Source: Leptospiraceae bacterium
GTDB taxonomy: Bacteria > Spirochaetota > Leptospiria > Leptospirales > Leptospiraceae
NCBI GenBank assembly: GCA_016708435.1
Contig: JADJFV010000035.1
Coordinates: forward strand, 64,001 to 128,000
Direction of reading: 5' to 3'
Length of the DNA stretch: 64,000 nucleotides
Below are positions 18,928-51,653 of the stretch, piece by piece. The position numbers and the translations under genes were made by a program. Position 1 is the first letter of the stretch, and each line of letters opens with the position of its first letter. The notes beneath the pieces are model-generated. The model was not told where the DNA came from and searched no databases. It worked only from the letters and a program-made list of their open reading frames with translations.

Positions 18928-19262
18928 TTGCCACAGAGGGGCAGAGGGGCGGGGGGCCAAAAATAATTATTTTTTTTTATTATTAATAAAAGGAGGGTGG
19001 ATGATATTAAAAAACCCCCCCTCTCTTTCTTTTTTTTTTTAATAAAACCAAAAAAAAAAAAACAAAAAAAAAAAACCCCCTGCCACAGGGGCCCAGGGGC
19101 AAAGGGGCCCAGAGTAAAATTTTTTTTTCCCATTTTTTAATAAAGGCGGGGTGGAAATTAAAAAAAAAACCTTTTCTTCCCTTTTTATTTAATTAATAAA
19201 CTAAAAAAAAAAACAAAAAAAAAAAAATCAAAATATCCTCTCGGTGCGCCTCTGTGGCGGTC
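18928..19262. repeat. Expanded copy of the CACAGAG terminal-inverted-repeat element, with a homopolymer-rich low-complexity interior
   Basis: The left end is TTGCCACAGAGGGGCAGAGG. The right end is CTCTCGGTGCGCCTCTGTGGCGG. The interior is made of A, T, C and G homopolymer runs with an internal ~120-bp tandem duplication. Confidence 0.55.
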
Positions 19263-19267
19263 CCTGT

Positions 19268-19986
19268 TTACTGCGAAGTTTTAACGTAAGGTGCGATGAG
19301 TGATTGGACATGTCCAGCTAATGTCTTGCTATCCATTGTTTTGATTGTATCTACTGTGACAGGAGGAAGGATTGTAATTGTGACATCGGCTGGTTTCATG
19401 ATTCCGTTATTCTTTTCCAGTATATCTGCTGTTCCATCGATTGCGATTGGAACGATAGGCACCATAGCATCCATTGCCAGTCTCACACTTCCTGGTTTAA
19501 AGCTTTGAACCGGTCCACCTTTACTTCTTGTGCCTTCGGGGAAGATAACAAGAGAATGCCCCTGCTTGAGAACTTCTACTCCAGTCCCAATTGCCTCTGC
19601 TGATTTTGCACGATTTGATCTATCCATAAAAACACAATTCATCACTCGCATCCAAGCGCCTACAATTGGAATTTTTAATACTTCTACTTTTGAAATAAAC
19701 CCAAATGGTTTAGGAACAAATCCAATGAGCACAGGAATATCAAAACTTCCCTGGTGATTGGCTACTATTACGACTGCTCCTTTCGGAAGGTTCTCAGCGC
19801 CAACTACTGTTATCCGCCCACCTACAATATTAACTAAACCTTTAGCCCATTTGCGGGGAGTTTTATTTTTCTCCCAATCTGTTTCTTCTACTGTCGCTAA
19901 ATTTACTCTGCTTGCAATCCATCTCTCTATGAAACTCGCAAACCCTCGTATAAAAAAATACAAATAAAATCCAATTGTTCTAAACA
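19268..19986 (-). CDS. plsC: 1-acyl-sn-glycerol-3-phosphate acyltransferase
   Basis: The HX4D motif is VANHQGSFD. FPEGTRS is also present. The start is taken at MFRTIGFYLYFF. The upstream extension (PQCLCGK) is a translation of the repeat. Confidence 0.75.
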
Positions 19987-20006
19987 TGAAAACTCCTTTA
20001 GGAATT

Positions 20007-20141
20007 TTGCCACAGAGACACTGAGGCACAGAGATATTTATTTTCATCTCTGCTTTGGGAACGATATTTATTATAACTCATTTGTAAACATAATTTCCGA
20101 ACATTTACTTTCTTCTCTGCGACTCTGTGTCTCCGTGGCAA
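20007..20141. repeat. CACAGAG TIR element copy A (TTGCCACAGAGACACTGAGGCACAGAG ... CTCTGCGACTCTGTGTCTCCGTGGCAA)
   Basis: It has 27-bp terminal inverted repeats flanking an ~80-bp AT-rich core. Confidence 0.7.
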
Positions 20142-20147
20142 TCTTAC

Positions 20148-20543
20148 TCAACTCATCTCTTGCTCTAATATCTTTCTGAATTCACTAGGAATAGAAAGCT
20201 TTGTATCAAGCCGATAGTCGTAATAGACTTGCACAGTCTTTGCTTTTGCATAGATAATTTTTGTTTTTGGGTTAATAATATTTGCCGCAAAGTCCCAGGA
20301 AGTAGTTCCAACTCTTGAAACCCATGTGTGCACATCTGCTTCTTCCCCCGGCCGTAGTGAATTTAAAATATCTAGCTCTACTCTGACTAGAACAAAAGGA
20401 ATATCCTGTAAAGTCTTGATAGAAATATATTTTTTGCAAAAGTCTAATCTTCCAAGTTCTAAGTAAGAACTGTATACAGAGTTATTGACTCTCTGCATTG
20501 GATCCATATCACTAAATCGAATTTGTATTGGTGTAATTATCAT
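20148..20543 (-). CDS. Acyl-CoA thioesterase, hotdog fold (YbgC/4HBT-like)
   Basis: 131 aa. The N-terminal IRFSDMDPMQRVNNSVYSSY is typical of 4HBT thioesterases. Confidence 0.65.
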   Translation of the reverse strand: MIITPIQIRFSDMDPMQRVNNSVYSSYLELGRLDFCKKYISIKTLQDIPFVLVRVELDILNSLRPGEEADVHTWVSRVGTTSWDFAANIINPKTKIIYAKAKTVQVYYDYRLDTKLSIPSEFRKILEQEMS

Positions 20544-21577
20544 ACGAAGTAAATTCTGTTCCGTCCATTTTCTTTGGCTTTGTATAAGAGTTCATCGGAG
20601 CGTTTGAGCATAGTATCAGGTGAGTCTTGATCGGATAATGACGTGAAGCCTCCAGAAGTAGTTACTTGCCAGGGAACTCCACTGAAACTATGCGCCTCAA
20701 TTACTAAATCATTTGCCCGAACGGTTGATTGTATAATCTTTGCAATTTCTTTAAGCACATCATCTCCAGTCAAATGCCCTAGAGTGTCATTTATTTTTTT
20801 GAAATAATCTACATCCATGATTCCCTGACAGAATGGTTGTGATTTTTTTCTTGCGAGTAAAATATGGTGCACGAGTAAATCCATCATATAACGACGATTA
20901 AACACACCTGTCAATGGGTCTTTGACTGAGATGCTTTCTAAGATTGTGTTTTTTCTTCTGAGTTCTTCTTCTAAGTGAAATGTCTTTCGCCTTGCGTATT
21001 CGATTGTCAGAGTAGTCATAAATCCAACAAAGGAATACAAAAATATTTTTGTAATTGTAAGTCCATTTATTTTATCCATATGAAGTGTTGCCAAACACAG
21101 AGTAAACCCAATAACAATAAATAAATAAATGATTGCATAAAAAAGAATGCGAGTTCTAAGGATAAGAGGAATCGACATAGCTACAAAGGCAAACAACGAT
21201 AAGTCCTCTCCATGAAATAGATTTAGAATATTGATTGATAAAGCGCCAATGATAAAAATCGTAAAATACAATAAATAGATAAAGTGAACTTTCTTATGTT
21301 TTACATTTAGAAAATAAAATAGAATGGAAAATAATACAGTGGTTACAAGCAAACAACCATATACCGCTACATAGATTGAATAAGAAAAAGATTGTCTATC
21401 CACACTCGGATAAAAAATATGCTGCAATAAGAAGCTTAAGGATGCAATAAATACAACACCGGCAAATCGAGGAAAACGATTCCAATTTTTCATCGCATTG
21501 AACACGATGTATTTATCTCTCTGGATTCCTCCCAACTGAGACATTCTTCGCCTGTATGTATTTAGTAAGTATTTCAT
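20540..21577 (-). CDS. Membrane-anchored GGDEF-domain protein with a degenerate active site
   Basis: It has 6-7 N-terminal TM helices. The GGDEF fold markers are present (GVFNRRYM, GHLTGDDVLKEIA, ELLYKAKENGRNRIYFV). The GG(D/E)EF position reads HSFSG. Confidence 0.7.
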   Translation of the reverse strand: MKYLLNTYRRRMSQLGGIQRDKYIVFNAMKNWNRFPRFAGVVFIASLSFLLQHIFYPSVDRQSFSYSIYVAVYGCLLVTTVLFSILFYFLNVKHKKVHFIYLLYFTIFIIGALSINILNLFHGEDLSLFAFVAMSIPLILRTRILFYAIIYLFIVIGFTLCLATLHMDKINGLTITKIFLYSFVGFMTTLTIEYARRKTFHLEEELRRKNTILESISVKDPLTGVFNRRYMMDLLVHHILLARKKSQPFCQGIMDVDYFKKINDTLGHLTGDDVLKEIAKIIQSTVRANDLVIEAHSFSGVPWQVTTSGGFTSLSDQDSPDTMLKRSDELLYKAKENGRNRIYFV

Positions 21578-21612
21578 AATAAGACTTTTGCGCTGGCATT
21601 ATGCGATAAGAC

Positions 21613-22494
21613 TTAAAGTATAACTGCGTTTTTTGCAGTCATTAATTTTTTTTGAATTACGATTCCTGGATTGCCGAGTGCTTTTTTAAATTGCTTCTCT
21701 GAAAAGTTCGCAACGATTTCATAGCATTGCTTATAGAAGGCTTCCTGGTCGTCTAGATATCCTTTCCATACCTCGCGAGTGAATTCATGAGTGAGAAATT
21801 GTTTTCGCTTACGAGAGGAGCTTTGTCCTTCTGGACTTAAGAAACTCAACTGGTCGGAAATTTCCATTGGTGTAAATTTTAATTGAAGCAAAGCTTCTTC
21901 CATGAGTGCCATCTCTACATAGGAAATATAATCCGACAACTGATCCCAGAATTCGAATCCTGCACTTCCATAATTACTCAGGCAGTGAAAACTTGTGCAT
22001 ACGGAGCTACGTGATTTCCAGATTCCACAATTATTTCTTTTGCGATCGTAATAAGGACAAAGCCAATCTTCTCTATTTCCAAACTCATTGTCTTTTCGTT
22101 TTGCAAATTTAATCTGGTGGGGCATGGGTGCGACAATTCCAATCGGTAATGCGTATTCTCTATTCTTAATCTTTGCTTTTATTCGCTCTAATACTTCTTT
22201 CGGTGTAGTAGGGGTTAATAGGATTTGTCCGATGAGATAGTTTGTTTGAAAAGGATGAAAGGTGCAACATTTTAAATGAGCTTGGTATTTTCTATGGTCT
22301 GGACTTTTTCCGTTACTGAGTGCACAGTTATCGCAAGTGGCTTTTGTTTCTTTTATCGCAAAATCAAGAATAGCCTCTGGAAATAGTTTATGATAGATAG
22401 AAGGAAGTATATTTCTAATCACTAGCCATTGCCTCAGCTGCAATCCAAGAAGTTGTCCATGCATTTTGGAAATTAAATCCGCCTGTGATCCCAT
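21613..22494 (-). CDS. Cys-rich protein, possibly YkgJ/UPF0153 family (CxxCxxCC Zn/Fe-chelating domain)
   Basis: The segment is ATCDNCALSNG...KCCTFHPF, with further Cys clusters (CPYY...CGIWK...CTSFHC). The start is uncertain and overlaps the upstream gene. Confidence 0.4.
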   Translation of the reverse strand: MGSQADLISKMHGQLLGLQLRQWLVIRNILPSIYHKLFPEAILDFAIKETKATCDNCALSNGKSPDHRKYQAHLKCCTFHPFQTNYLIGQILLTPTTPKEVLERIKAKIKNREYALPIGIVAPMPHQIKFAKRKDNEFGNREDWLCPYYDRKRNNCGIWKSRSSVCTSFHCLSNYGSAGFEFWDQLSDYISYVEMALMEEALLQLKFTPMEISDQLSFLSPEGQSSSRKRKQFLTHEFTREVWKGYLDDQEAFYKQCYEIVANFSEKQFKKALGNPGIVIQKKLMTAKNAVIL

Positions 22495-23644
22495 CTATAT
22501 CAATCACTTCACCGGCAAAATACATACCGGAAATAATTCTGCTTTCCATTGTTCTAAAATCGATTTCTTTTCTATTGACTCCACCGCAAGTAACGAACTC
22601 TTCTTTGAAAATGGATTTACCGTCTACTTCGTATATACTGCTACATATTTCTTCTCTCAGTCGATTTAATTCTGCATTGGAAATTTCAGACCATCTTTTC
22701 TCAAGAGAGATATTTGCATTTCTTAAAAAAGATTCCCAGAGCCTAGATGCCAATCCAAATTGGGAATTCGCTGAAATCTTTTTAGCGGGGGATTCCTGTT
22801 TAATGGCTGTTATCCGTGAAATGAATTCTTCTCCTGTCACTTGCCCTAACCAATTTACTTTTACTTTTGCTTTGTAATCACAGTCTGCAAAGCTTTTCGC
22901 TTCCCAGGCAGAGAGTCGTAAGACAGCAGGACCACTGAGTCCCCAGTGGGTAATTAGGATTGGTCCCTGTTGTGGTTTTCCTTTTGGTAGTAGGCGAATT
23001 TCTCCATTGGGAACAGAGAGCCCCGGTAGATCTTTGATTCTTGAATCAGGAATATGCAAAGTGAATAAGGAAGGGACTGGTTTTTCGATTGTATGACCGA
23101 GGGAATCGAGCCATCCCCATACTTTTCTGTTTGAGCCTGTGGCTACTAGCAATTTGTCGAAGGTTTGGTTTTGTTCCTTTGAATCGACGAGGCAAAATTT
23201 CTTTTCTTTCTTTGTGTTATCAACGTAGATTGCAGTGATTGGATTCTCTAGACGAATTTCTACTCCTGCCTCGATTGCCTCTCTTGTGAGACAGTCAATG
23301 ATTGTAGAAGAAGTATTGGTAACAGGAAACATTCTTCCGTCTGCTTCTGCTTTTAATTTAACACCATGAGTTTCAAACCATTGGACTGTATCTCTTGGTT
23401 GAAATCGTTCAAAGGCTGCTCTTAGTTCTTTAGAGCCTCGCGGATACTTCTCGGAAAGTGCAACAGGGTCGTATAAGTTGTGGGTAACATTGCATCTACC
23501 ACCACCGGAAATTTTTACCTTTGCAAGTGGCTCATTTCCTTTCTCTAATAAAACAATATTGGCCTTTCCCTTCATTTGCTTAGCTATTTGGATTGCACCA
23601 AAATATCCAGCAGCCCCACCCCCTAGGATTCCAATTTGTTTCAT
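22415..23644 (-). CDS. HI0933-like NAD(P)/FAD-dependent oxidoreductase (BaiN/RdsA family flavoprotein)
   Basis: The N-terminal Rossmann motif is IGILGGGAAGYFGA. GGGRCNVTH is also present. 409 aa. Confidence 0.8.
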   Translation of the reverse strand: MKQIGILGGGAAGYFGAIQIAKQMKGKANIVLLEKGNEPLAKVKISGGGRCNVTHNLYDPVALSEKYPRGSKELRAAFERFQPRDTVQWFETHGVKLKAEADGRMFPVTNTSSTIIDCLTREAIEAGVEIRLENPITAIYVDNTKKEKKFCLVDSKEQNQTFDKLLVATGSNRKVWGWLDSLGHTIEKPVPSLFTLHIPDSRIKDLPGLSVPNGEIRLLPKGKPQQGPILITHWGLSGPAVLRLSAWEAKSFADCDYKAKVKVNWLGQVTGEEFISRITAIKQESPAKKISANSQFGLASRLWESFLRNANISLEKRWSEISNAELNRLREEICSSIYEVDGKSIFKEEFVTCGGVNRKEIDFRTMESRIISGMYFAGEVIDIDGITGGFNFQNAWTTSWIAAEAMASD

Positions 23645-23698
23645 CTATTCCATGAACGGTCTTGTTATTCCTATGTCAAGTTAAGAGAGGTATTATTG

Positions 23699-23891
23699 CA
23701 ATGCTGTCAACTTAAGAATTGTTTCTGTCATTTCGAACATCGCTTGGCGGTAGGATTTGCGGCTAAGCAAATGGGTGGATGTGAGAAATCTATATGGCAA
23801 TACAACGATAGTATTAAGCTAGATAGACCTCTCACGATGAAGCAGTTCGAGGTGACAGGAGAAAAGCACTTTCCTTAAGTTGACAGCATTG
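23699..23891. repeat. Palindromic MITE-like element copy 2 (23725-23858, reverse orientation), nested within an outer 18-bp inverted repeat, CAATGCTGTCAACTTAAG / CTTAAGTTGACAGCATTG
   Basis: The termini are CTGTCATTTCGAAC ... GTTCGAGGTGACAG. The outer inverted repeat is perfect. Confidence 0.7.
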
Positions 23892-24022
23892 TCCATCTGT
23901 GGCAATCCGTTATCATTTTGGTTAGATGAGCGAGAGTTAGAATCAAATACTGAGAAATATCATGTTTTTTTTAAATTATATTTTCTGGTAAAAAAGGGGG
24001 GTTTTATATTTAAGCTAATAGT

Positions 24023-25114
24023 ATGATAGTAATGACGAAAAATTCAATTGATAAAATGACGAGTCTTCGTAATTTTTGGCAAGAAAATCGTTTCCAACTA
24101 GGGATACCCCTGATCGATATTCAGCATCTGTGGTTACTCTATATTATAACAACTTTAGAAGCATCTCTTTCTAATGCTGAGAGTTTAAGCGAGACCCTAA
24201 AAGATTCAATTGTAGGAATCATTGATTATATAACAGAGCATTTTAGCTTAGAAGAAGAAATCCTAAAAGAGTTTAAGTATCCCGGATTTGAAGAGCATGT
24301 AAAGCATCATAGACAGTTCGTGGATACGCTCCAAGATAAGCATGACTTAGCGAATACGAATGAGTTAGCCGCTCTAGGTCTTTTGAACATGTTACAGAAA
24401 TGGTTGTTTCAGCATATTTTGAAAGACGATAGGATGTATGTAGATTTTTTCAAAAGAAATTCAATTGATGTAAAACCGTTCTGTCAAGAAATTCTAATTA
24501 AGAAAAAATACAATATCACCAAGAAGCAAGGAGATGTGTATAAAGAAATTTGTAACTTTAGACAAACGGAAATTGAAGAAGTCATCAGTGAGAATATGGT
24601 GGAAGACATTCTGCATATTTGGAAATCTCACAATCTATCTCTTAATCTCCCTCTAATCGACTTACAACATATTTGGCTTCTTAAGATGGTAATCCAATTA
24701 GATAAAGCTGTTAAGACTATGGGGACGACCAAAAAAGGCGAGGTGTTTAACCAAGTTATCGAAGAAGCAGTTGAATATACCGTTAAGCATTTTACTCTCG
24801 AAGAGCGAATCATGAAAGAGTTTCGCTATCCAGAAATTCTAAATCATTTTCATCAACATGAATCTTTTGTTGGTTTCATCAAGCAAAGAAGAAAAGAAAA
24901 TGAATCAGGCGATAGCATGGCAGCATTTCACCTAACGCAAGATCTAAAGACATGGCTTCTATCGCATATCGCACACGAAGATAAGAAACTAGCATTATTT
25001 CTAAAAGATAAAATGAAAGAAGTAAATGAATTTACCCGACATCTTCAACACAAAGGGGAGGTTGCAATTGACCCCGGACAAAGGAACTTCTACAAAAAAA
25101 TCACAAGAGAATAA
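24023..25114 (+). CDS. Hemerythrin-like metal-binding protein with two tandem bacteriohemerythrin domains
   Basis: Two H-HxxxE-type repeats are present: HFSLEEEILKEFKYPGFEEHVKHHRQF and HFTLEERIMKEFRYPEILNHFHQHESF. Confidence 0.65.
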   Translation: MIVMTKNSIDKMTSLRNFWQENRFQLGIPLIDIQHLWLLYIITTLEASLSNAESLSETLKDSIVGIIDYITEHFSLEEEILKEFKYPGFEEHVKHHRQFVDTLQDKHDLANTNELAALGLLNMLQKWLFQHILKDDRMYVDFFKRNSIDVKPFCQEILIKKKYNITKKQGDVYKEICNFRQTEIEEVISENMVEDILHIWKSHNLSLNLPLIDLQHIWLLKMVIQLDKAVKTMGTTKKGEVFNQVIEEAVEYTVKHFTLEERIMKEFRYPEILNHFHQHESFVGFIKQRRKENESGDSMAAFHLTQDLKTWLLSHIAHEDKKLALFLKDKMKEVNEFTRHLQHKGEVAIDPGQRNFYKKITRE

Positions 25115-25134
25115 TGGCTGCTTCGTAGACTTGT

Positions 25135-25342
25135 TTGCCACAGAGTCACGGAGGCACAGAGGGGTTTTAGGAGAGCCTAATTCATATTATCCTAATTATT
25201 TTCGTGATTCGGGTTTGTGTCTATGATACTTAGATGAAAATCATTTAATTCAAAGCTTTCATAAGCTCTCTTTAAATTGATGCATACGAATTTAAAAATA
25301 ACCAAACAAAAAACTCCGTGTCTCTGTGCCTCTGTGGCAAAT
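25135..25342. repeat. CACAGAG TIR element copy B
   Basis: The left end is TTGCCACAGAGTCACGGAGGCACAGAG. The right end is CTCCGTGTCTCTGTGCCTCTGTGGCAA. Confidence 0.7.
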
Positions 25343-25348
25343 AATCTT

Positions 25349-26098
25349 TTATAGTATATTCCACTCAGTGCAGTATTTTCTGAATAGGTCAAAGCCGGAG
25401 AGGTCAATAGGCGTTATCCGGTAATGCAATTCTTTTTTTAAATAAGAATTTAACATATCAACAGTAAATCTTTTTTCGCTAGAAATAATTTCTTCTAGAT
25501 GCTCTATTCCATAATCTAGCGAATCCAAAAAGAACGAATCAGAAAAACTCGCTCCTTTAGGAAATGCCCAGAAAGCAAATACAAAAGAAAGATTTGTTTC
25601 TTTGTGCCACCACTCTGCTAAATCAAAAACTTCATAGGTAGAAGAATCCCAGGTAGCAAGGAGTGCATTGTCTCCAAAGAGCAAATGGGAATTATGCGCG
25701 TTTTGTATATTTTCTAGAATTAGACTTGGATCTGTGGGGATTACTTCGATTAGTCTTCCAGTCTCTTTTTTGAGTAGGGTCTGTAATAGTGCTACACTAC
25801 TACGAGAACCTGCATCTGTATAAATTCTATCCGGCGGAAAGGACTCCTTTTTATTTTTGAAAAACAAAATAGATCGAACCTTCTCTTTCGCGCATACTCC
25901 GCAGGCAGTTGAATAGGATAATACTGATTCGTTTCGAATGCACTCTACAGAAGAAATAAGTGCCGTGTCAAGCTCGCCCTTTAGTAACATATCTTTTAGC
26001 ACAGAAGGATTTTCAAATACAAGCTCATGCGATCCCGTCTTCTCAAATCCGTAAGTAAGCGGTCTCGCGTTTAGATGCTTTACAATTCCTATTTTCAT
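25349..26098 (-). CDS. MqnA/MqnD-family protein (futalosine-pathway menaquinone biosynthesis; chorismate dehydratase-like)
   Basis: The N-terminal MKIGIVKHLNARPLTYG resembles the MqnA signature. The periplasmic-binding-protein-like fold length is 249 aa. Confidence 0.55.
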   Translation of the reverse strand: MKIGIVKHLNARPLTYGFEKTGSHELVFENPSVLKDMLLKGELDTALISSVECIRNESVLSYSTACGVCAKEKVRSILFFKNKKESFPPDRIYTDAGSRSSVALLQTLLKKETGRLIEVIPTDPSLILENIQNAHNSHLLFGDNALLATWDSSTYEVFDLAEWWHKETNLSFVFAFWAFPKGASFSDSFFLDSLDYGIEHLEEIISSEKRFTVDMLNSYLKKELHYRITPIDLSGFDLFRKYCTEWNIL

Positions 26099-26272
26099 CT
26101 TATCGCAATGATTATGGGGCGAGGGTTTTGGGGAATTAAAATTTTTTGGGAGGAGTTATGGGCTTTCTGGTTCTATTAGACAATGGAGTTCGATTATTCT
26201 GTGATTTCTTATCTTCTGAATAGGTTAATGCAATTTGGAGAACTGGCAATTGTATCATACCACCCTTTATCC

Positions 26273-26318
26273 AGCCTTCGGTCTGCCTTCGATCAGCGTT
26301 CGATTAGCCTTCGATCAG
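26273..26318. repeat. Short tandem repeat, ~11 bp x4 (CCTTCGATCAG-like)
   Basis: The four units are AGCCTTCGGTCTG, CCTTCGATCAG, CGTTCGATTAG and CCTTCGATCAG. Confidence 0.6.
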
Positions 26319-26484
26319 ACAATGATAAAAAACGAAAGCAAACCGCACGGTTTAGGAGTGTAAGTCAATCTTTTGAATACGGTAATCCTATCCTATTACA
26401 ACGAATCCATAACCTTTTGATGCAGGAAGTATAGGGGTTGTGTAAAGGCATGATTTTCTCACACTTCATGATCAGTATAAATGC

Positions 26485-26616
26485 GCCGCACACAGAAAAG
26501 AGTCAATAGCCCTATCGAGATCAATCCTCTTTGTGAACTCTGTGCACTCTGTGAGAAATATGAATAGGAATAAAGTTGGCACAGACTCATAAACAACCTC
26601 AGTGCCTCGGTGGCAA
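26485..26616. repeat. Degenerate CACAGAG element copy C
   Basis: The right end is CCTCAGTGCCTCGGTGGCAA. The interior has CTCTGTGCACTCTGTGAG. The left end is decayed. Confidence 0.45.
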
Positions 26617-26864
26617 ATTTCCTTAAAGGTACTTAAAACCCGTATAGCCTAATGGCTGTAAACCTCAGAATTTGGAGTACAAGCGGCTAATTGCTGTATG
26701 TACTAATCAAGCGTTATGCGTAATTGATGTTTAGTACAAGTAATGAAAATAAGGTTAAAATAAGATTTTTTTAGTTATAAAATAAAAAAATCCTTTAGCA
26801 TTTCCCAAAACGTACCGTTTACTTTAATGAAATCAATCCGACATAAATAAAAGCAGGCACAAAC

Positions 26865-27149
26865 TTGGAAAAAAAGCAACCTAACACACAACCTCTCAAT
26901 GTGGTTCCATCGCAAAAGACGAATGATCCGCAAGCAGTAAATCCTTCTCCTAATTTTAAAAAAATCCTTTCTAGGTATGTAAACTATCGCGGGATCGACA
27001 TCGTTCTTTATTTAAAAGATGGGACTGTTATTGAACTAGATAAGAATCGTAAGCTAGATGGGGATGTCGTGATTAAAAATGGCAAAGAAGGAATCGTTGC
27101 GAGAATTGAACTTTCTGATATCAGAAAGGCAGATTTCTTTGCTGCTTAA
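26865..27149 (+). CDS. Hypothetical protein of 94 aa, upstream of rpsU
   Basis: Only the ORF is seen. No family was recognised. Confidence 0.4.
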   Translation: MEKKQPNTQPLNVVPSQKTNDPQAVNPSPNFKKILSRYVNYRGIDIVLYLKDGTVIELDKNRKLDGDVVIKNGKEGIVARIELSDIRKADFFAA

Positions 27150-27275
27150 AAAAGCAATTCTAGACTCAAGAATCAAAAATATTTCTTGCCCTCTTATTAA
27201 TTTTTAAAATCGTAGTTATATTAGTATTTCCCTGCCTTCTCGGTTTAGGGAAATAAACGTTTAAAAGGAGATTAG

Positions 27276-27485
27276 ATGGTAGGAATCATTATTAAAGAGG
27301 GAGAATCCATAGAGGGAGCACTCAGAAGATTCAAAAGAGATTGTGCAAATGCAGGTATTTTAAGCGAAATCAAGAAAAGAGAACACTTCGAAAAGCCTAG
27401 CGTTATTAAGAAAAAAGCCATAGACACAGCTAGAAGAAAGCGTGACAAAAAGAAACGCATTTTCGCTAAAAAAGAAAAGATTTAA
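27276..27485 (+). CDS. rpsU: 30S ribosomal protein S21
   Basis: ALRRFKRDCANAGILSEIKKREHFEKPS matches the S21 consensus (ALRRFKRSCEKAG...RRREFYEKP). Confidence 0.9.
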   Translation: MVGIIIKEGESIEGALRRFKRDCANAGILSEIKKREHFEKPSVIKKKAIDTARRKRDKKKRIFAKKEKI

Positions 27486-27572
27486 TTAATCCCCAATAGG
27501 ACTGTGTAAGAAAATTTATTTTTACACACCCCCTAAGGTATCCCTTTATATTTCGAATCCATCGGTATAGCT

Positions 27573-28031: not shown

Positions 28032-28039
28032 CAGTCTCT

Positions 28040-29860: not shown

Positions 29861-29863
29861 AAA

Positions 29864-31615: not shown

Positions 31616-31821
31616 AAAATAAGGGCTGAGTAAAAAAATGCAGGAGTCTATCTATTCGCGTTAAGCAATCAGATATTTTTTACCAGCCCCAAAATCAGAC
31701 ACACAATTTATCTAGTTAAATTATCGTCTGAGTTCAAAATTTACACTGAAACTTTTTTTATTAAAATTTGATAATATAGGATAAGAATATGTTAAATCTC
31801 TCTAGAAATTCTATAATAAGG

Positions 31822-31962
31822 TTGCCACAGAGTCACAGAGGCACAGAGAAAGGAGAGGATAGAGGATTTAATTTAACGAATAGGTTTTTAAAAAGTTTTT
31901 CTAACATTTCGAAAATTCTTAATGTATTTTCCCCCTCCGTGCCTCAGTGTCTCTGTGGCAAA
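31822..31962. repeat. CACAGAG TIR element copy D
   Basis: The left end is TTGCCACAGAGTCACAGAGGCACAGAG. The right end is CTCCGTGCCTCAGTGTCTCTGTGGCAA. Confidence 0.7.
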
Positions 31963-31965
31963 TCT

Positions 31966-32631
31966 ATGCTACGCTTTATCGGGCGGGTTTTTGTTTTACT
32001 ATTCATTCTATCACTGAGTGCGTGCTTTGAGTATGAAGAGACGATTAATTTTAAGAAAGGGTTTGCTGGATTTGTTGAGATTACATATACCGTGCCACTC
32101 AATAATAAATCAGACAATACTGTGATTAAGTTTCTTCCTATTTATGAAGATGACATTAACAAAAGAATCAACAAAGGCTTGTTTTCTAAAAATCTAAAGA
32201 TCAAAGATTACACTCTCAAATACTTAGAGAAGAATGAAAAAGAAATCAATCCTATGTTTCAAAAAAAAGCACGCGTGAATTATAAAATTGAATTTAACGA
32301 CTTAGCAGTGTTAGACGGAGTTCTACTCGGCTCTCTATTTGTCAAAAAACGATCTAACAATAGTATCAGCGTAAAGCGAGAATTCAAATCAGTTCTTAAA
32401 CCAATTGACCAAACATCCACTACAGGCGAAAAAAAGATTTTATCTGAATCTACTCGTTTACTCGGAGAAGGATTCATTGCCTTTAGAGTCAACTTTCCGT
32501 TAACCTCAGAATGTCGCTCTAGTAAGGGAGATGTGAGTCTAGGCTCAGTCTATTACAAAATCCCTCTTGTGGATACTGTCGATAAGCCGGGACCAAAGTC
32601 CTGGGATTATACGATTACGATGTTGTATTAA
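31966..32631 (+). CDS. Hypothetical lipoprotein
   Basis: The signal peptide is MLRFIGRVFVLLFILSLSAC. The start of the upstream ORF-track extension lies inside repeat D. Confidence 0.55.
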   Translation: MLRFIGRVFVLLFILSLSACFEYEETINFKKGFAGFVEITYTVPLNNKSDNTVIKFLPIYEDDINKRINKGLFSKNLKIKDYTLKYLEKNEKEINPMFQKKARVNYKIEFNDLAVLDGVLLGSLFVKKRSNNSISVKREFKSVLKPIDQTSTTGEKKILSESTRLLGEGFIAFRVNFPLTSECRSSKGDVSLGSVYYKIPLVDTVDKPGPKSWDYTITMLY

Positions 32632-32660
32632 GATGAATTCAATTCAGGGATTTTTGATTA

Positions 32661-32829
32661 CTGTCACCTCGAATAGCTTCACCATGAGAGGTCTATCTTG
32701 CTTACCCTCGCTGCGAAGTTATAAACGCCTTTGTATACTATCCTATCGTTTCATTGCCAGATAGATTTCTCACATCCAGCCATTTGCTTAGTAGCAAATA
32801 CAACCGCTAAGCGATGTTCGAAATGACTG
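32661..32829 (+). repeat. Palindromic MITE-like element copy 3
   Basis: The termini are CTGTCACCTCGAAT ... GTTCGAAATGACTG. The inner inverted pair is GAGAGGTCTATCT / AGATAGATTTCTCAC. Confidence 0.75.
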
Positions 32830-32909
32830 TGTAATTCCTTACCTTAAGGACAAAGAGCAATCATCTTCTTACCTCGATGACCCTGAAGGCAGAACATTTG
32901 TTTTTACCT

Positions 32910-33113
32910 TCACAAGAACTTTAACATGCTCACCATAAGTCCCGTGTTGACAAGCATGAGACCTGCGACCCAACGAACGGTGGATGATCGAAAAAAAATG
33001 CTCGCCAACTCTTTTGCCTTTGCTTCATCGAATTTAGCACTTTTCAGCCGCTCGTATATTTTTAAAGAATCCATTGTATGTTCCATACCATAGTTAGGTA
33101 AAAAGAAAAGCAT
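32910..33113 (-). CDS. Small hypothetical membrane protein (67 aa)
   Basis: Only the ORF is seen. It has a C-terminal hydrophobic segment. Low support. Confidence 0.3.
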   Translation of the reverse strand: MLFFLPNYGMEHTMDSLKIYERLKSAKFDEAKAKELASIFFRSSTVRWVAGLMLVNTGLMVSMLKFL

Positions 33114-33334
33114 TTTGTGGTTCTTTTATGACAAATATCAGTTTATTTTTATTTACTGTGTTTAAAAAGAAAGTTGCAATTAAAAATAAATATTGTCTTT
33201 CTTGGATTTAGTTTATTAGAGAATAGTAAAAAAACGACCGCTGTATAGCAAAGGCAAAACCTAGATTAAAAACAACATAATCGAGGACTGTTCATTTGTA
33301 TCCACGGTGGTAATCATTTAAAATAAGAGGTAAT

Positions 33335-34828
33335 ATGAATCCATTTATTCAATCAAAAGTTATGACAGCAGAAGATGTGGCAAATAGAATGCCATTACAA
33401 GGAACAATTGCAACGAGTGGTTTTACTCCTGCCGGTTACCCGAAAGTAATCCCTAAAGCCTATGCTGCAAGAATAGAAAAAGAGAAACTCGCCGGAAAGA
33501 ATCCTTGGTTTAATCTATACACTGGTGCTTCAACCGGAGATGAGCTTGACGGAGTTCTTGCACGCACTGGATGTATGAAGAAACGTTTACCGTTTCAATC
33601 CTCTGCTGATGTTCGTAATCGAATCAATGCAGGAGAAATTGATTTCGTAGATATGCACTTAAGTCATGTGGCACATTATATCCGCGATGGAATTTTAGAT
33701 CCAATTGATGTTGCAATCGTTGAAGCAGTAGATGTTTCCTCTGACGGTAGAATATGGTTAACCACATCTTCCGGGATGAGTAGAACTTACTTGCATCATG
33801 CAAATGAAATTTATATCGAATTAAATTCTCGTCCTCCATTGGAATTGAAAGGCTTCCATGACTTAACCGCTCCAGAGCAACCTCCTCATGGAAGGTCAGT
33901 TCCTATTAGCCGCGTTGATGATCGAATTGGTAGACCTTATGTTGTAGTCGATCCTGACCGCATAAAGGGAATTGTTCTCACTGATTTGGATGATTCTACT
34001 GGCGAATTTAAAGCTCCCGATCAAAACAGTGTATTAATTGCACAGCATATACTAGAATTTATTTTATTTGAGATTAAGAAAGATAGAATTCCAAAAGAAT
34101 ATCTTCCGTTTCAATCAGGTGTTGGAAATGTGGCTAATGCTGTATTATCCTGTATTGCAAAGGATAAAAGATTTCATGAAATTGAAATGTGGACAGAAGT
34201 ATTACAGGACTCCATCTTTGATGTTCTAGAAGTTGGTAAACTTCGTTGTGCTTCTACATCGGCACTTACCTTTTCGAAAGCAGGTCATGAAAAGTTCTTA
34301 CATGATATTAATGAGTTACGGTATAAGTTCATTATCCGCCCACAAGAAATTTCCAATCATCCAGCCCTTGTGAGAAGTCTTGGTATCATTGCGATGAATA
34401 CAGCGCTTGAAGCAGATATTTATGGAAACGTAAACTCTACTCACGTAGCGGGAACAGGAATGATGAATGGTATTGGGGGTAGTGGGGATTTTGCGCGAAA
34501 TGCTTACGTGTCTATCTTCATGGCACCGTCAGTTGCTAAAGGTGGAGCTATTTCTGCATTTGTTCCAATGGTTTCGCATGTGGATCATACAGAACATGAC
34601 ACACAGATCATCGTATCCGAGCAAGGACTTGCGGATATTCGTGGTTTGGCGCCAAGGAAGAGAGCTGAGGTTATCATCGAAAAATGTGTTCATCCTTCTT
34701 ACCGAGATGCAATGCGTGAATACACAAAGGAATCCTATGCTACTGCTAAAACAAAGCACACTCCTCACAATCTAAAGAAAGCTTTTGATTGGCATATCAA
34801 ACTTCTTGAAACGGGAAGTATGAAGTAA
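33335..34828 (+). CDS. Acetyl-CoA hydrolase/transferase family protein (succinyl-CoA:acetate/propionate CoA-transferase type)
   Basis: 497 aa, with family-wide similarity. GIGGSGDFARNAYVSIFMAPS is in the C-terminal domain. Confidence 0.8.
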   Translation: MNPFIQSKVMTAEDVANRMPLQGTIATSGFTPAGYPKVIPKAYAARIEKEKLAGKNPWFNLYTGASTGDELDGVLARTGCMKKRLPFQSSADVRNRINAGEIDFVDMHLSHVAHYIRDGILDPIDVAIVEAVDVSSDGRIWLTTSSGMSRTYLHHANEIYIELNSRPPLELKGFHDLTAPEQPPHGRSVPISRVDDRIGRPYVVVDPDRIKGIVLTDLDDSTGEFKAPDQNSVLIAQHILEFILFEIKKDRIPKEYLPFQSGVGNVANAVLSCIAKDKRFHEIEMWTEVLQDSIFDVLEVGKLRCASTSALTFSKAGHEKFLHDINELRYKFIIRPQEISNHPALVRSLGIIAMNTALEADIYGNVNSTHVAGTGMMNGIGGSGDFARNAYVSIFMAPSVAKGGAISAFVPMVSHVDHTEHDTQIIVSEQGLADIRGLAPRKRAEVIIEKCVHPSYRDAMREYTKESYATAKTKHTPHNLKKAFDWHIKLLETGSMK

Positions 34829-35090
34829 CCGATTTCTTTCCATTTTAACTAGGTGCTCTGAGTGAGTGCCTGGTTAAATGCCGGACAATTCGCAGTATTC
34901 GCCTATAGGTATATCTCCATGGAGAGTTACGCCGGACAAGAATTTGAATACTTTTCCAATTTTAGAATCTTAAGGAGGTCGATAGCCTGAATTTAAACTA
35001 CTAAAAAAAGAATTTGCTTGAAATTATTAGGATAACATTTACAATTCTCCGCATTAATGAAAATGAGTTTAGAGAGCAGGGAATAAAAAA

Positions 35091-37646
35091 ATGAAATGGA
35101 AATCCTTAGATAAAAACTTACTACTACTATTAATCATATCTTTGCTACCACTTTGTAAACAAGGAACCGCGAATACTAAAGAAGACAAAGAATCCTTATT
35201 CACAAATTTTGGCTTACTCTTTAATAGATCCAATCGACTTACTGTTTCAGGCTCTGCAGTCAAAGGAATTATTAAAAACGGAAAAGTGTCAATCAACACT
35301 TTAGGAAAGGATGGGACATGTAATTCTTCTCGGAATATTGTAACTGGAACTACAGATATAACCGGATTCTACTCAATTACTTATGACAAAACAGGTGGAA
35401 TGATTTGTGTTACCGTATCGGGGGAACAAAATACAACAATGTATGATGAGAAAACAGCAAAAGATTTATCTATTCCCTCTACTTCTAATTTTAAGTTAGT
35501 ATCCATTCTGCCTGAAAGTAAATTTTCTAGTAACACAAAAAAAAATACTCTCCTATCTCCCTTTTCAAAATTATTATCCAAAAGAATGGAATCCTTAATT
35601 AAACAGTCAGGAGAAGGAGGAGATGTATCCGCACTTTACAGAAAGGCAAGTAAAGAAGTAGTCATTCGATTTGGTTTAAGTTCTGGTCTTTCAACTGCTT
35701 CTCAAAAAAGCAAATCGACTTTAGAAATAAATCCAAGCATCTCTGATTCAGACTATCCAGAATTGGATGATTTGGCAATTGAGCTAGACAACCCAAATAG
35801 CCCTATCTCTGCCAAAGCTTTTTCTGTGCTAGCTGGTTTTTCCCAACTTGCAAATTCTTACAAAAAAGGAACAGATGTTGATATATCCGATATAGATGCA
35901 ATGATAGAAGCCTTTGCTTCTGATTTTGAAGATGGAGTTTTTGACGGGAAAAATAGTTCGGGAAACACAATTACAGTGGGGTCTGGCCAAAGGCAACTAA
36001 CGTTCTCTTCCACTCCGCTCACTACCATTTTACTACCTGCCATTTCCACTTATCTACAAGAGGGAGGAAAATTAAATGTAGGTGTACCAGGAACGCCAAC
36101 GTCTACCATCACGGTAACTCAATTTACAAATCAAACCCAATTTAATGATAATACTCCAATCCTATCTACGACAACTACTCCAACCAATACAACTCCTGTA
36201 ACGACCACACCGACGCAAAATACCATTCCACCAAAAGTCCTTTCGCTAACGCCTACAAATAATTCTACAAATGTTTTAATTGGAACTCCTATTACCATTG
36301 TCTTTGATAAGCCAATGGACATTACAACACTTACGATGATTTCTATGGATGGCACTTGCGCGGGCAATATCCAATTATCCACAAATAATTTTACAACTTG
36401 CATGGGTGGAACGGTTTCTCTCTCTGCTGATCAACTAACAGTGAGTATAACTCCTAAAACTTCCCCCTGTGTTGAATCTACTTATACTTTGCAGTTTAAA
36501 GTATCAACTGGTGTTAAGGATACTACGGGTAATCCGCTTACCTCTGAGTTTTTAAATACAACTACATTTCAAACGCAACAGGCATTTGTTAGAGTAGGCA
36601 TATCCGGCGGTTCAAATATTGTAAATGCATTGGCCGTATCTTGTAATACTTTGTTTGTAGGTGGAAATTTTACAACGGTTGGTAGTTCTACGCGAAATAA
36701 TATTGCTGCTATTAATTTAGCAACAGGTCTTGAGACTCCAATTAATATGGGGACGAATAACACTGTTAATGCATTGCTCGTAAACGCAGGAATTGTTTAT
36801 TTGGGTGGAATATTTACAAATGCAGGTGGTCAAGGTCGAAACAATGTTGCGGCTATCGATCCACTTACGGGAACGGCTACTCCCTGGAATCCGAATGGGA
36901 GTGGTCAAGTAATGTCTTTAGTTTATAACGGAGCAACGGTTTATGCAGGAGGAGCATTTACTACGATAGGGGGACAGGCTCGAAATCGAATTGCTGAATT
37001 AGACCTTGCTAACGGTAATGCAACTGCTTGGAATCCTAATGCTAGCCTTGGAACAATCAATGCGATAGCGTATGATGCAACTAACGTTTACCTTGGTGGA
37101 AATTTTACATCGGCAAATATTGGCGGGCAAACCTATACTCATCTCGCTGCTGTATCTCGAACTACCGGAGCAGGAGTTGCAGGCTGGTGTCCAACAACGA
37201 CTACTTTTCCTGTAAGCGCATTGGTATTAACTGGTGGAGTTCTATTTGCAGGGGGAACTTTTGGTGGAAATCTTTGCTCACTCACTATCTATAATTTTGG
37301 TGGACTTAATCCAGCAAATGCGGCTAGTAGTGGTTATCCGTCAGGAGGAGGGACAGGGGCAGGTGCTGGGGTCAATGCACTTGCAGTGAGTGGGAATAAT
37401 TTATATGTAGGTGGAGCCTTCAATGGGGCTGGTGCCTTTTTTAATCAGGTTAGAAATTATTTGGGATCGACTACTACTGCTGGGGTTCTTAATTCTTGGG
37501 ATCCGAATGCGAACAATACTGTGAACGCAATCACAACCGTAGGCTCAGCCGTAATTATAGGAGGGACTTTTACTACGATTAATGGAGGCACGGCTGTGAA
37601 TAGACTTACAATCGTTGATGCAAATACTGGACTCATTAGACCTTAG
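35091..37646 (+). CDS. Large lipoprotein paralog with the same N-terminal module and Thr/Pro linker as 15718-18129, but C-terminal Ig-like plus ~55-aa beta-propeller-type (delta-60-like) repeats
   Basis: The lipobox is LPLC. The repeats are LFVGGNFTTVGSSTRNNIAAINLATG, VYLGGIFTNAGGQGRNNVAAIDPLTG, VYAGGAFTTIGGQARNRIAELDLANG, and so on. Confidence 0.7.
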   Translation: MKWKSLDKNLLLLLIISLLPLCKQGTANTKEDKESLFTNFGLLFNRSNRLTVSGSAVKGIIKNGKVSINTLGKDGTCNSSRNIVTGTTDITGFYSITYDKTGGMICVTVSGEQNTTMYDEKTAKDLSIPSTSNFKLVSILPESKFSSNTKKNTLLSPFSKLLSKRMESLIKQSGEGGDVSALYRKASKEVVIRFGLSSGLSTASQKSKSTLEINPSISDSDYPELDDLAIELDNPNSPISAKAFSVLAGFSQLANSYKKGTDVDISDIDAMIEAFASDFEDGVFDGKNSSGNTITVGSGQRQLTFSSTPLTTILLPAISTYLQEGGKLNVGVPGTPTSTITVTQFTNQTQFNDNTPILSTTTTPTNTTPVTTTPTQNTIPPKVLSLTPTNNSTNVLIGTPITIVFDKPMDITTLTMISMDGTCAGNIQLSTNNFTTCMGGTVSLSADQLTVSITPKTSPCVESTYTLQFKVSTGVKDTTGNPLTSEFLNTTTFQTQQAFVRVGISGGSNIVNALAVSCNTLFVGGNFTTVGSSTRNNIAAINLATGLETPINMGTNNTVNALLVNAGIVYLGGIFTNAGGQGRNNVAAIDPLTGTATPWNPNGSGQVMSLVYNGATVYAGGAFTTIGGQARNRIAELDLANGNATAWNPNASLGTINAIAYDATNVYLGGNFTSANIGGQTYTHLAAVSRTTGAGVAGWCPTTTTFPVSALVLTGGVLFAGGTFGGNLCSLTIYNFGGLNPANAASSGYPSGGGTGAGAGVNALAVSGNNLYVGGAFNGAGAFFNQVRNYLGSTTTAGVLNSWDPNANNTVNAITTVGSAVIIGGTFTTINGGTAVNRLTIVDANTGLIRP

Positions 37647-37752
37647 ACAAAATCTAGAAATGCTCTAGAGATTGCTAAAAAACTTTTCTTTTTTAGTTTG
37701 AAATTTCTCTATTAGTCAGCAAAGTGTAATCTAATTATCTAAGGAGTCTATC

Positions 37753-38376
37753 TTGAATCAAAAAAGTTTTTCTAAATTTCTAATACTATTACTCGTGAGT
37801 CTTCTCATGAACTGCGGCTACAATCGCATACAGGAACTCGATGAAGAGGTTAATGCAAATATGGCGGAGATATTAAATCAATACAAACGTCGCGCTGATT
37901 TAATCCCAGGACTTGTAAAAATTGTAGAAGGCTATGCAAGTCATGAAAAAGAAGTGTTAGTTGAAATCACAAAGGCACGTAGTAGTGTAGGTGGCTTACA
38001 AGCGACACCAGAACTAGTAAACAATCCAGAAGCATTTAAGAATTTTCAAAACGCACAGAACTCTCTTGGCTCTGCTTTACAACGTCTTCTTGTGGTAACA
38101 GAGCGTTATCCTGATCTCAAAGCTAACGAAGGCTTTCGAGATTTACAAGCGCAATTAGAAGGAACAGAAAACAGAATCGCAGTAGCCAGAGGACGTTATA
38201 TAAAAGCTGTTCAGGAATACAATGTCACCATTCGTCAATTTCCAACAGTGTTAACTGCTAAAATGTTTGGGTATGGAACTAAGACTTCTTTTACAACTGA
38301 GAATGAAGCGGATATTAAGAATTTGCCGTCTGATATTTCTAAACCACCTGAAATGGATTTCGGGAAGAAGAAATAA
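37753..38376 (+). CDS. LemA family protein
   Basis: It has an N-terminal TM/lipobox segment. The hallmark is NQYKRRADLIPGLVKIVEGYASHEKEVL...LLVVTERYPDLKAN. Confidence 0.85.
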   Translation: MNQKSFSKFLILLLVSLLMNCGYNRIQELDEEVNANMAEILNQYKRRADLIPGLVKIVEGYASHEKEVLVEITKARSSVGGLQATPELVNNPEAFKNFQNAQNSLGSALQRLLVVTERYPDLKANEGFRDLQAQLEGTENRIAVARGRYIKAVQEYNVTIRQFPTVLTAKMFGYGTKTSFTTENEADIKNLPSDISKPPEMDFGKKK

Positions 38377-38378
38377 GA

Positions 38379-38588
38379 TTTGCCACCGAGGTACGGATTC
38401 GATAAACTCACCGCAGGCGCCGACACAGAGGGAATTTTAATTCTATTCATGTACATCGTGTGAAAGAGAGTCATAGAAAATATGATTCAAATGAAGTATT
38501 GTAACAGAATCACAACTAACCTTAATTACGAAAACAAATAGAGTTTTTTAAAAAGAACTCTATTTCTCTCTCTTTGTCTCTGTGGCAA
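38379..38588. repeat. CACAGAG TIR element copy E (left end degenerate)
   Basis: The left end is TTTGCCACCGAGGTACGG...GCCGACACAGAGGG. The right end is CTCTCTTTGTCTCTGTGGCAA. Confidence 0.55.
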
Positions 38589-50803: not shown

Positions 50804-50941
50804 CCATTGCAAGGCATAGAATTACACACTAAAAAGAACTGATAAGGATTTTTATTCGCGGTATCATATTCATAACTTGTCTGCAAAAATACGCAGTTTA
50901 GCGTATTGCCATTTTTTATTCAGAGTGATAGAGTTATCCCT

Positions 50942-51586: not shown

Positions 51587-51653
51587 AATTTGATGAAGTC
51601 GAGCATATTCGAGATATATGATAATTTACCTTTCAAATCAAATACAAAAAAAA

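Follow-up and report, generated by a model that had tools for sequence, protein, structure and literature searches.

The intervening sequence (IVS) in the 23S ribosomal RNA (rRNA) of Coxiella is 444 nt long, is closed by a 28-bp terminal stem, encloses an open reading frame (ORF) of about 120 amino acids (aa), and is cut by RNase III; such 23S IVSs have long been suspected to be mobile elements (PMC4990558). For Geobacter bemidjiensis, Aklujkar et al. in 2010 listed short tandem repeats that occur in pairs at operon junctions (nuo, pdh, hem, bio, and others) as "multicopy nucleotide sequences" (Table S6 of that study), and one nonanucleotide family in this catalogue, TTT[WCCTCTGTG..]nGTGAG (CCTCTGTG), resembles the repeats described here (PMC2996986). 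Our subject is the CACAGAG element, which occurs in six intergenic copies (A to F) in a 64-kb stretch of DNA from a Leptospiraceae bacterium (GenBank assembly GCA_016708435.1, contig JADJFV010000035.1, positions 64,001 to 128,000), hereafter called the window. An earlier note on this DNA took the element for a genome-specific family of the kind known as MITEs (transposable elements of the miniature inverted-repeat type) or repetitive extragenic palindromic (REP) sequences. Judged by the sequence of their arms, the window copies are members of a cross-phylum hairpin family and are not specific to this genome; full-length members of this family are associated with a small gene for a GxxExxY protein, a putative nuclease of the PD-(D/E)XK type.

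The G. bemidjiensis catalogue is the nearest prior record of such repeats. It is a descriptive account of one genome, in which the link to GxxExxY proteins, the cross-phylum distribution, and a mechanism do not figure ("implications remain to be elucidated") (PMC2996986). The function of the GxxExxY family (PF13366/TIGR04256) was given as "Unknown" in a PD-(D/E)XK survey (PMC3424549), and in the literature that we searched, the terms GxxExxY, PDDEXK_3, PF13366, and TIGR04256 surfaced only in incidental mentions. The exact arm sequences were in no paper that we found, and this search produced nothing relevant on MITEs in Leptospira or on PDDEXK proteins in combination with inverted repeats. The link between the arm family and the GxxExxY gene is apparently unreported.

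Distribution of the Arms across Phyla

We define the family by a cap (GCC/ACC) that is followed by at least two to three tandem octamers of the form N-C(A/G)C-N-GAG. When one genome per species was scanned with the pattern GCCACAGAGNCACNGAGNCAC, at least 120 loci were recovered from more than 10 phyla with GC contents between 32 and 72%; about 17 matches in the 1.2e12 positions would be expected by chance under a uniform base composition, according to our own estimate. The presence of the same arm sequence in so many phyla contradicts the assumption that the element is genome-specific. Among the matches listed are Acidobacteriota, Leptospiraceae and other Spirochaetota, Geobacteraceae, Burkholderiales, Nitrospirota, Nitrospinota, Verrucomicrobiota, Chloroflexota, Planctomycetota, Gemmatimonadota, Calditrichia, Bacillota, and Bacteroidota, and most of these matches have an inverted partner 7-544 nt away, with unrelated interiors between the arms. 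In some subfamilies interiors are shared, as exemplified by window copy C, which is 84% identical over 69 nt to a sequence from UBA2033 (locus L023).

The minimal form of the family is a plain hairpin with a stem of approximately 25 bp (e.g., locus L118). Many loci hold several elements that bracket genes; in a locus from Geobacteraceae (L117), an arm or an element is found at each of the four nuo-gene junctions that the locus covers. Arms are also present in 30 viral or proviral contigs of IMG/VR.

The GxxExxY Gene of the Full-Length Cassette

The two longest elements, one located in a nuo operon from Geobacteraceae (L117, 5286-5748) and the other in locus L060 (1016-1602), each enclose an ORF of about 120 aa that matches Pfam PF13366 (PDDEXK_3; E-values of 6e-43 and 3e-39) and the NCBIfam model TIGR04256 ("GxxExxY protein"). 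GxxExxY proteins have a size of approximately 125 aa, and three of the four GxxExxY ORFs in the loci selected by their arms directly abut an arm. The association holds equally in the reverse direction, in which 80 metagenomic loci were picked by the protein alone and their flanks were then inspected: 67 of them possess both an upstream arm and an inverted downstream arm. With a single exception, about 120 nt or less separates the upstream arm from the protein match (median 45), and the downstream arm is mostly no further than about 30 nt away (median 20); the background elsewhere in these loci amounts to 27 raw matches in 175 kb. In three loci of the remainder a contig end truncates the sequence, and several others have variant octamers (CACAAAG, CACGAAG, CGCCAAG) or CAGAG every 10-11 nt.

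Gene and arms also remain together in a clade that is only 44% identical (Magnetospirillum-like, Hydrogenedentes, Syntrophobacteraceae), in which the ORF may sit between two complete hairpins, [> <] ORF [> <]. RefSeq isolates show the same arrangement; the gene of Bacteroides finegoldii is positioned between radA and the gene for a FAD-dependent protein and is bordered by the arms TCACCACAGAGGACGCAGAGGACACGGAGG ... CTCTGTGACCTCTGTGTCCTCTGTGGTGA, and the gene-arm association recurs in Bernardetia. In the protein tree, the elements whose arms are purely CGCAGAG/CGCGGAG all group together in a single clade.

The protein family is represented by 31,930 sequences at 50% identity when a threshold of E<=1e-3 is applied, and by 13,071 at E<=1e-10; no sequence relative was found in the PDB, and only eight plasmids or chromids carry a close homologue. 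The GxxExxY protein is a predicted minimal PD-(D/E)XK nuclease with a Cas4/RecB/Dna2-like core. It looks like a working enzyme, because its catalytic E/D/K residues are invariant or nearly so (E32, Y35, D71, and K83 are invariant, E75 and E81 almost) and because the divergence of the ORF follows that of its host neighbour: in two groups that share a host context, the identities of the GxxExxY protein and of the downstream host gene are 0.83 vs. 0.87 and 0.71 vs. 0.68, respectively, a parallel that points to purifying selection. The ORF is co-oriented with both neighbouring genes in 38 of 49 cases, and the flanks of the cassette are too short to hold a promoter. Tandem duplications of the GxxExxY domain occur as well, either fused into two-domain proteins or encoded by adjacent genes (L080, 3640-3830; many matches of 240-295 aa with two matched stretches).

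Conservation of the Arms and Target Sites

The cores of the two arms of an element agree at 96% of their positions in a set of 93 arm pairs (a value bounded by the two-mismatch limit of the search), whereas agreement at the N positions is 56% and thus close to the 52% expected from composition; elements with short loops behave likewise. Covariation between the arms was not detected at the N positions, and in ORF-carrying elements G·U pairs are not favoured on the sense strand (transitions 44 vs. 54, p=0.36). Since the cores are kept while the N positions drift without covariation, it is the CAC/GAG motif of each individual arm that is conserved, and not perfect pairing. With this pattern, the arms look like sequence-specific recognition sites for a protein, rather than the outcome of selection on an RNA helix alone.

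The inverted repeat reaches about 3 nt beyond the GCC. Two bases outside the GCC, 3-nt A/T repeats are in weak excess (10 vs. 2.8 expected in the 93 pairs); a regular target duplication was found neither across these pairs nor at the window copies, where the earlier note had suggested that one might be sought. These data bear on the possibility that the element is a classical MITE, that is, a deleted derivative of an insertion sequence (IS) that is moved by a DDE transposase encoded elsewhere, with the arms serving as transposase-binding ends and the GxxExxY gene as passenger cargo. The terminal inverted repeats with their sub-repeats, the small size, the A/T-rich interiors, the intergenic location in multiple copies, and the slight excess of 3-nt flanking direct repeats would all agree with such an origin. 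Nevertheless, only GxxExxY ORFs were found between arms in approximately 200 fetched loci, and the other long elements that were checked hold no ORF; no credible ORF was detected in the long loops of the viral contigs L216 and L222, and no parent IS with the same ends and a transposase came to light in the loci examined. Furthermore, the interiors are unrelated even at orthologous sites, and the arms are identical across phyla, a degree of constancy that is not known for the terminal repeats of IS elements. In view of these findings, and as no regular target duplication was seen, we consider a classical MITE very unlikely indeed. The designation as a REP sequence in the sense of those served by REP-associated tyrosine transposases (RAYTs) does not hold either, as a single arm is not palindromic and carries no GTAG motif; what stands of the original MITE/REP description is that the window copies are short, gene-less, intergenic, multi-copy, and flanked by inverted repeats.

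The Copies in the Window

At no more than one mismatch, the motif TTGCCACAGAG has 13 matches in the window (0.69 expected), and the two-octamer pattern CRCNGAGNCRCNGAG has 15 (0.13 expected); all 15 are located inside the six elements that had been reported, which are hence real. The arm has the form TTGCC-ACAGAG-NCACNGAG-NCACNGAG, i.e., TTGCC plus three tandem octamers N-CAC-N-GAG, an arrangement that had been half-noticed as an internal CACAGAG direct repeat. Copies B, C, and E each possess two clean arms of 27 nt that fit GCCACNGAGNCACNGAGNCACNGAG on both sides with 0-1 mismatch, while copies F, A, and D fit this pattern only in part. Of the six copies, which had been described as sharing terminal inverted repeats of about 27 bp (with D listed as decayed), B, C, and E are intact, A and F are degenerate, and D retains one arm only. 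The copies are small and non-coding and carry terminal inverted repeats, as is typical of MITEs, and their interiors do not align to one another. Their layout of two inverted arms, a variable interior, and a position at a gene junction is the same as that of 76 arm pairs, almost all of them from other genomes. All copies are intergenic, as previously stated, and fill the space between genes nearly exactly, each abutting stop or start codons within 3-20 nt.

Copy A (18928-19262) lies between the PNP_UDP_1 gene (start 18915) and plsC (stop 19268) and has a degenerate left arm (18928-18954) and a degenerate right arm (19237-19259). Its interior is made up of homopolymer runs that are arranged as two tandem noisy copies; it looks like poor consensus or assembly noise, and the sequence of this copy appears unreliable. 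Copy B (20007-20141; arms 20007-20033 and 20115-20141, interior of 81 nt) occupies the space between the plsC start (19987) and the stop of the thioesterase gene (20148), in agreement with the earlier placement. Copy C (25135-25340; arms 25135-25161 and 25314-25340) is flanked by the convergent genes for hemerythrin (stop 25114) and an MqnA-like protein (stop 25349) and contains the subterminal motifs TTTTAGGAGAGCCTAATTCATA (25165-25186, plus strand) and TTTAAAGAGAGCTTATG (25260-25276, minus strand). Copy D (26538-26616) is a remnant with the solitary right arm CCTCAGTGCCTCGGTGGCAA at 26597-26616 and the internal sequence CTCTGTGCACTCTGTGAG, a CTCTGTG doublet, at 26538-26555; no convincing left arm was found in it, and the left end formerly placed at 26485 is unsupported. 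Copy E (31822-31961; arms 31822-31848 and 31935-31961) is located between the rpoD stop (31615) and the start of a gene for a lipoprotein of the LIC11874 family (31966). Copy F (38380-38588) follows the LemA stop (38376); its left arm (38380-38430) is split by a 24-nt insert (38398-38421), its right arm (38563-38588) is degenerate, and its interior contains the A/T-rich palindrome AAATAGAGTTTTTTAAAAAGAACTCTATTT.

The long N-terminal ORF extensions that run through the copies are, by comparison with relatives, artefacts, as had been suspected for both genes concerned: plsC is called with 259 aa in the window vs. 239 aa in L121 and L203, and the lipoprotein with 280 aa vs. 221 aa in L253. The arms betray themselves in such false extensions through the peptides ...PQCLCGK and ...SVSLW, a point to be considered in genome annotation.

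When copies B and E are folded as RNA, they are predicted to form stems of 27-30 bp with single mismatches at N positions and free energies of -42 to -54 kcal/mol (-42 to -47 for B, -54 for E; z -6 to -8.5). Read directly in the region of copies B-E, the individual arm shows neither self-complementarity nor a GTAG motif. Rfam gave no match at the gathering threshold over the whole window and, at E<=5, only noise in 18.8-26.7 kb; a tRNA scan of the window found nothing. None of the arm stems of B, C, E, and F falls on a terminator-like site or has a T-tract behind it, and sites that resemble promoters or terminators are as frequent as in shuffled controls, and thus not enriched. Stable predicted stems, the position exactly at gene boundaries (also within operons), and the retention of arms between species might suggest a cis-regulatory element that benefits the host, be it a transcription-factor palindrome (the fallback that the earlier note had kept in reserve), an attenuator, or an mRNA-stabilising REP-like hairpin. 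The same motif is, however, used in phyla with unrelated regulators, the spacing of the arms ranges from 7 to 544 nt, T-tracts and an enrichment of promoters or terminators are missing, no Rfam family matches, and such an element would not explain why a nuclease gene is systematically linked to the hairpins. We thus view a host regulatory element, including the transcription-factor palindrome, as very unlikely.

Three further sequences in the window touch upon the arm motif. An exact 11-mer match to TTGCCACAGAG at 12642-12652 (minus strand) lies within an AAA-ATPase_like/PDDEXK_9 gene (10969-12735) and has no adjacent tandem octamers; by our own estimate, chance alone would give about 0.03 exact matches in the window, and we take this one as a coincidence. 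The solitary arm-like match TTGCCACAGAT (lone ATCTGTGGCAA) at 23895-23905, likewise devoid of tandem octamers, is treated as a remnant or a chance match. About four imperfect tandem units of approximately 12 nt (GCCTTCGATCAG-like) at 26258-26320, just upstream of remnant D, may be another type of short-repeat arm.

The Same Junctions in Relatives

The window derives from a Leptospiraceae metagenome-assembled genome (MAG) that is about 80% identical to UBA2033; its segment from 10.3 to 26.2 kb is 97% identical to GCA_016703885.1 (L121), and GCA_016718635.1 encodes a lipoprotein identical to that of the window. Ten assemblies of a sister species, with 72-81% nucleotide identity to the window, encode a GxxExxY protein (P0105), and its gene sits exactly between plsC and PNP_UDP_1, the junction that is taken by copy A in the window. 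The order of the sister cassette is TTGCCACGGAGGCACAAAGACACGGAG - 34 nt - ATG ... TGA - g - ACTCCGTGCCTCCGTGGCAGA; the cassette of L203 measures about 440 bp, with arms of about 25 nt and an ORF of 127 aa. The plsC-PNP junction is empty in four assemblies, three of which are 97% identical to the window or encode an identical PNP protein; L121 has a spacer of 12-13 bp there, and two short-read assemblies with the identical PNP protein, L258 and L259, likewise lack an element. Copy A probably marks a real site of cassette polymorphism; the consensus of the copy itself is probably poor, and either a rare variant or reads of the sister species that misled the polishing could be behind it. The junction lies in an A-run, and a target duplication is hence ambiguous there. 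That copy A might be a decayed GxxExxY gene was considered and rejected, since BLAST shows no similarity between it and the L203 cassette.

The junction between the thioesterase gene and plsC (copy B) is occupied in both the window and the L203 species. Between these orthologous copies the arms align, but the interiors show no relation to each other (81 nt in the window vs. about 140 nt in L203, where the interior resembles that of window copy C). Six differences separate the arms over 50 positions; the ten N positions account for five of them, the 40 core positions for one. At the copy F junction, all contigs that encode the identical LemA protein share the interrupted left arm, which is followed by one of two alternative interiors, and an interrupted arm of this type is also present at another L203 locus. 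A second hairpin family, built from CACGAAG/CGCGAAG octamers (AACCGCGAAGGGCACGAAGAACGCGAAG ... CTTCGTGAGCTTCGTGCCCTTCGTGGTAA), is part of one of these alternative interiors downstream of the LemA gene (L246, about 2400-2500; also L245, L250, and L252); it is absent from the window, and its unit also flanks a GxxExxY gene in L192.

Gene-less copies of Leptospiraceae retain the subterminal motif TTTAAAGAGAG, which in the full-length cassette lies just before the start codon; its retention suggests that the gene-less copies derive from full-length cassettes.

Chance similarity or an assembly artefact is a concern primarily for copy A, whose homopolymer-rich, tandemly duplicated interior is not found in four other assemblies, of which three come from the same strain or one very close to it, and the window probably stems from a long-read MAG. 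Opposed to this are the 15 matches against 0.13 expected, the presence of copies B and C in the independent assembly L121 and of copy F in many short-read contigs, and the occurrence of the family in hundreds of unrelated assemblies. For copies B, C, E, and F this explanation is refuted, and as an account of the family its probability is negligible.

Three differences between the window and its relatives stand apart from these junctions. Two neighbouring UBA2033 genes that are separated solely by a CACAGAG element of about 200 bp (L020, 4295-4523) are 4.8 kb apart in the window (50804-55605), with extra genes and without the element. The synteny with L121 (4331) and L254 stops at 26157, from where the window continues to yqeY-dnaG-rpoD; L121 and L254 carry Peptidase_S8/Y4kK and AAA/nSTAND3 genes beyond the equivalent point, and L121 additionally an MmeI-type restriction-modification gene. 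A connection of this strain breakpoint with the arms was dismissed, as it is not positioned at an arm. Finally, the window lacks, at 20700-20706 in a GGDEF gene (20540-21577, minus strand), 88 bp that are found in L121 (9751-9839), so that the ORF has 345 vs. 364 aa; since 88 cannot be divided by 3, either the deletion shifts the frame or the assembly is wrong here.

A Possible Mechanism and Its Rival

We favour, with somewhat more confidence than doubt, the reading that the window elements are gene-less, non-autonomous hairpins of a REPIN/MITE-like kind (REPIN, REP doublet forming a hairpin) that are served by a GxxExxY nuclease of the PD-(D/E)XK type. An arm consists of a short cap (GCC, here after TT) and about three tandem octamers N-CAC-N-GAG, and an inverted pair of arms brackets an arbitrary interior. 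In a full-length element, a promoter-less gene for the GxxExxY protein of about 125 aa resides between the arms or right beside them and, being usually co-oriented with the host operon, would be read through from host promoters. The nuclease might then recognise the CAC/GAG cores in a sequence-specific manner and act in trans, thereby spreading or maintaining hairpins at gene junctions rich in A/T, with no regular target duplication being left; the RAYT transposases that serve REPINs would be an analogy, though the enzyme is a different one. Loss or replacement of the interior would give rise to gene-less copies such as B, C, E, and F. A transcribed copy is expected to fold into a stem of 25-30 bp within operon transcripts, and this stem would constitute a plausible RNase III site or a barrier to decay.

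The most serious rival is an IVS-like module that functions at the level of RNA. Here, the arms would act mainly as a double-stranded stem of about 25 bp in operon transcripts; RNase III would cut it, release or insulate the ORF, and uncouple the neighbouring cistrons, and the core would be conserved for an RNA-binding partner (the GxxExxY protein itself, or the ribosome via Shine-Dalgarno-like GGAG/GAGG) and not for DNA mobility. The L203 cassette (about 440 bp, arms of about 25 nt, an ORF of 127 aa) matches the Coxiella IVS in its architecture, the predicted stems are strong, the cassettes have no promoter room and are co-oriented with host genes, they persist for long at fixed operon junctions, and GGAG/GAGG of the arm lies directly upstream of the ORF start. 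Yet RNase III needs structure and not sequence, and the CAC/GAG cores do not change between Bacteroides and Leptospiraceae; the varying positions do not covary between the arms, and G·U is not favoured among the mismatches on the transcribed strand. In addition, copy C sits between convergent genes, and some genomes place the ORF outside the hairpins, as in [> <] ORF [> <]. We judge an IVS-like module unlikely as the explanation in place of a nuclease-served hairpin, although both could be true.

Several points weigh against the nuclease-served hairpin that we favour. That the GxxExxY protein binds or cleaves the arms is something we infer purely from sequence comparisons. Enzymes of the PD-(D/E)XK type hydrolyse DNA and cannot rejoin it, which leaves the mobility mechanism incomplete, and target duplications show no consistency. 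A jackhmmer search over all ORFs of the 64-kb window found no GxxExxY ORF, so that the window copies are gene-less, and no close homologue that might account for the cross-phylum spread was recovered in searches of IMG/VR and INPHARED. Within the species of the window, the only insertion polymorphism is copy A, a suspect sequence that is absent from short-read assemblies. Moreover, cassettes remain at the same junction over deep divergence, a behaviour that fits a resident, possibly host-useful module equally well.

Beyond the window, a wider proposal follows the same line: the GxxExxY gene and its CACAGAG-type arms may together represent an ancient, cross-phylum, and previously unrecognised class of elements, a hairpin cassette whose sole protein would be an arm-recognising minimal Cas4/RecB-like nuclease, which would have colonised operon junctions from Bacteroides to Leptospiraceae, and which would amount to a second REPIN-RAYT-like system with a new mechanism of mobility or maintenance. 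We advance this proposal tentatively, with doubt slightly outweighing confidence. If true, it would offer the first functional context for the very large orphan family PF13366/TIGR04256 (about 32,000 clusters at 50% identity) and would account for short tandem-repeat hairpins at operon junctions of many environmental and gut bacteria. The arms define a DNA/RNA motif of 7-8 nt that is conserved across phyla and is accompanied by a candidate cognate nuclease, and cultured hosts for experimental work are available in Geobacter pickeringii, Oryzomonas rubra, and B. finegoldii. The arms also mark spots at which long-read consensus and strain variation go wrong.

Other Inverted Repeats in the Window

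A perfect 18-bp inverted repeat, CAATGCTGTCAACTTAAG / CTTAAGTTGACAGCATTG, is present at 23699-23716 and 23874-23891 with a distance of 157 nt, in the region from which the HI0933-like and hemerythrin genes diverge; it bears no relation to the CACAGAG arms, and the arm-like match at 23895-23905 comes next to it. Arms of 35 nt with 83% complementarity are found 38 nt apart at 56447-56481 and 56520-56554. A nearly perfect palindrome of 42 bp (ATTTGCCCAAGGGCGTGGATT/AACCCACGCCCTTGGGCAAAT) occupies 8201-8242 at the end of the ORF 7333-8223.

Comparison with Known Systems

Integron cassettes with their attC sites resemble the full-length element in that a promoter-less ORF is combined with an imperfect, hairpin-forming inverted repeat that is conserved at its ends and variable at its centre, and in the orientation relative to host genes. 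However, R''/R' GTTRRRY cores, an integrase, and cassette arrays are missing here, and the repeats bracket the ORF on both sides. MITEs share the terminal inverted repeats, a size of 60-350 bp, the A/T-rich and non-coding nature, and the intergenic, multi-copy occurrence, but the present elements depart from them in showing no regular target duplication, mostly unrelated interiors, no transposase partner that we could see, and arms that are conserved beyond what is usual for IS ends.

The 23S rRNA IVSs of Leptospira, Coxiella, and Salmonella come close to the cassette in length (about 440 nt), in their stem of about 25-28 bp, in the small ORF that is enclosed, and in the dependence on host transcription. 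They are inserted into rRNA helices 9, 25, or 45, whereas the elements studied here occupy junctions between protein-coding genes; their ORF encodes an S23p four-helix bundle instead of a GxxExxY protein, and here the arm sequence itself is conserved, not just the structure.

With the REPIN-RAYT systems, the elements have in common the short intergenic repeats in inverted pairs that form long hairpins, the many gene-less copies per genome, a small nuclease-type gene flanked by cognate repeats, and a long, largely vertical persistence. The enzymes differ, a PD-(D/E)XK (Cas4/RecB-like) nuclease here and an HUH/Y1 transposase there, and so do the repeats: a REP is an imperfect palindrome with a 5' GTAG motif, while the arm consists of tandem octamers, is non-palindromic, and has no GTAG. 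Furthermore, the GxxExxY gene is multi-copy and often resides inside the hairpin, and the arm core is found across phyla rather than being lineage-specific. By analogy, then, REPIN-RAYT is the closest functional counterpart of the CACAGAG elements, and the 23S rRNA IVS is the closest in architecture.

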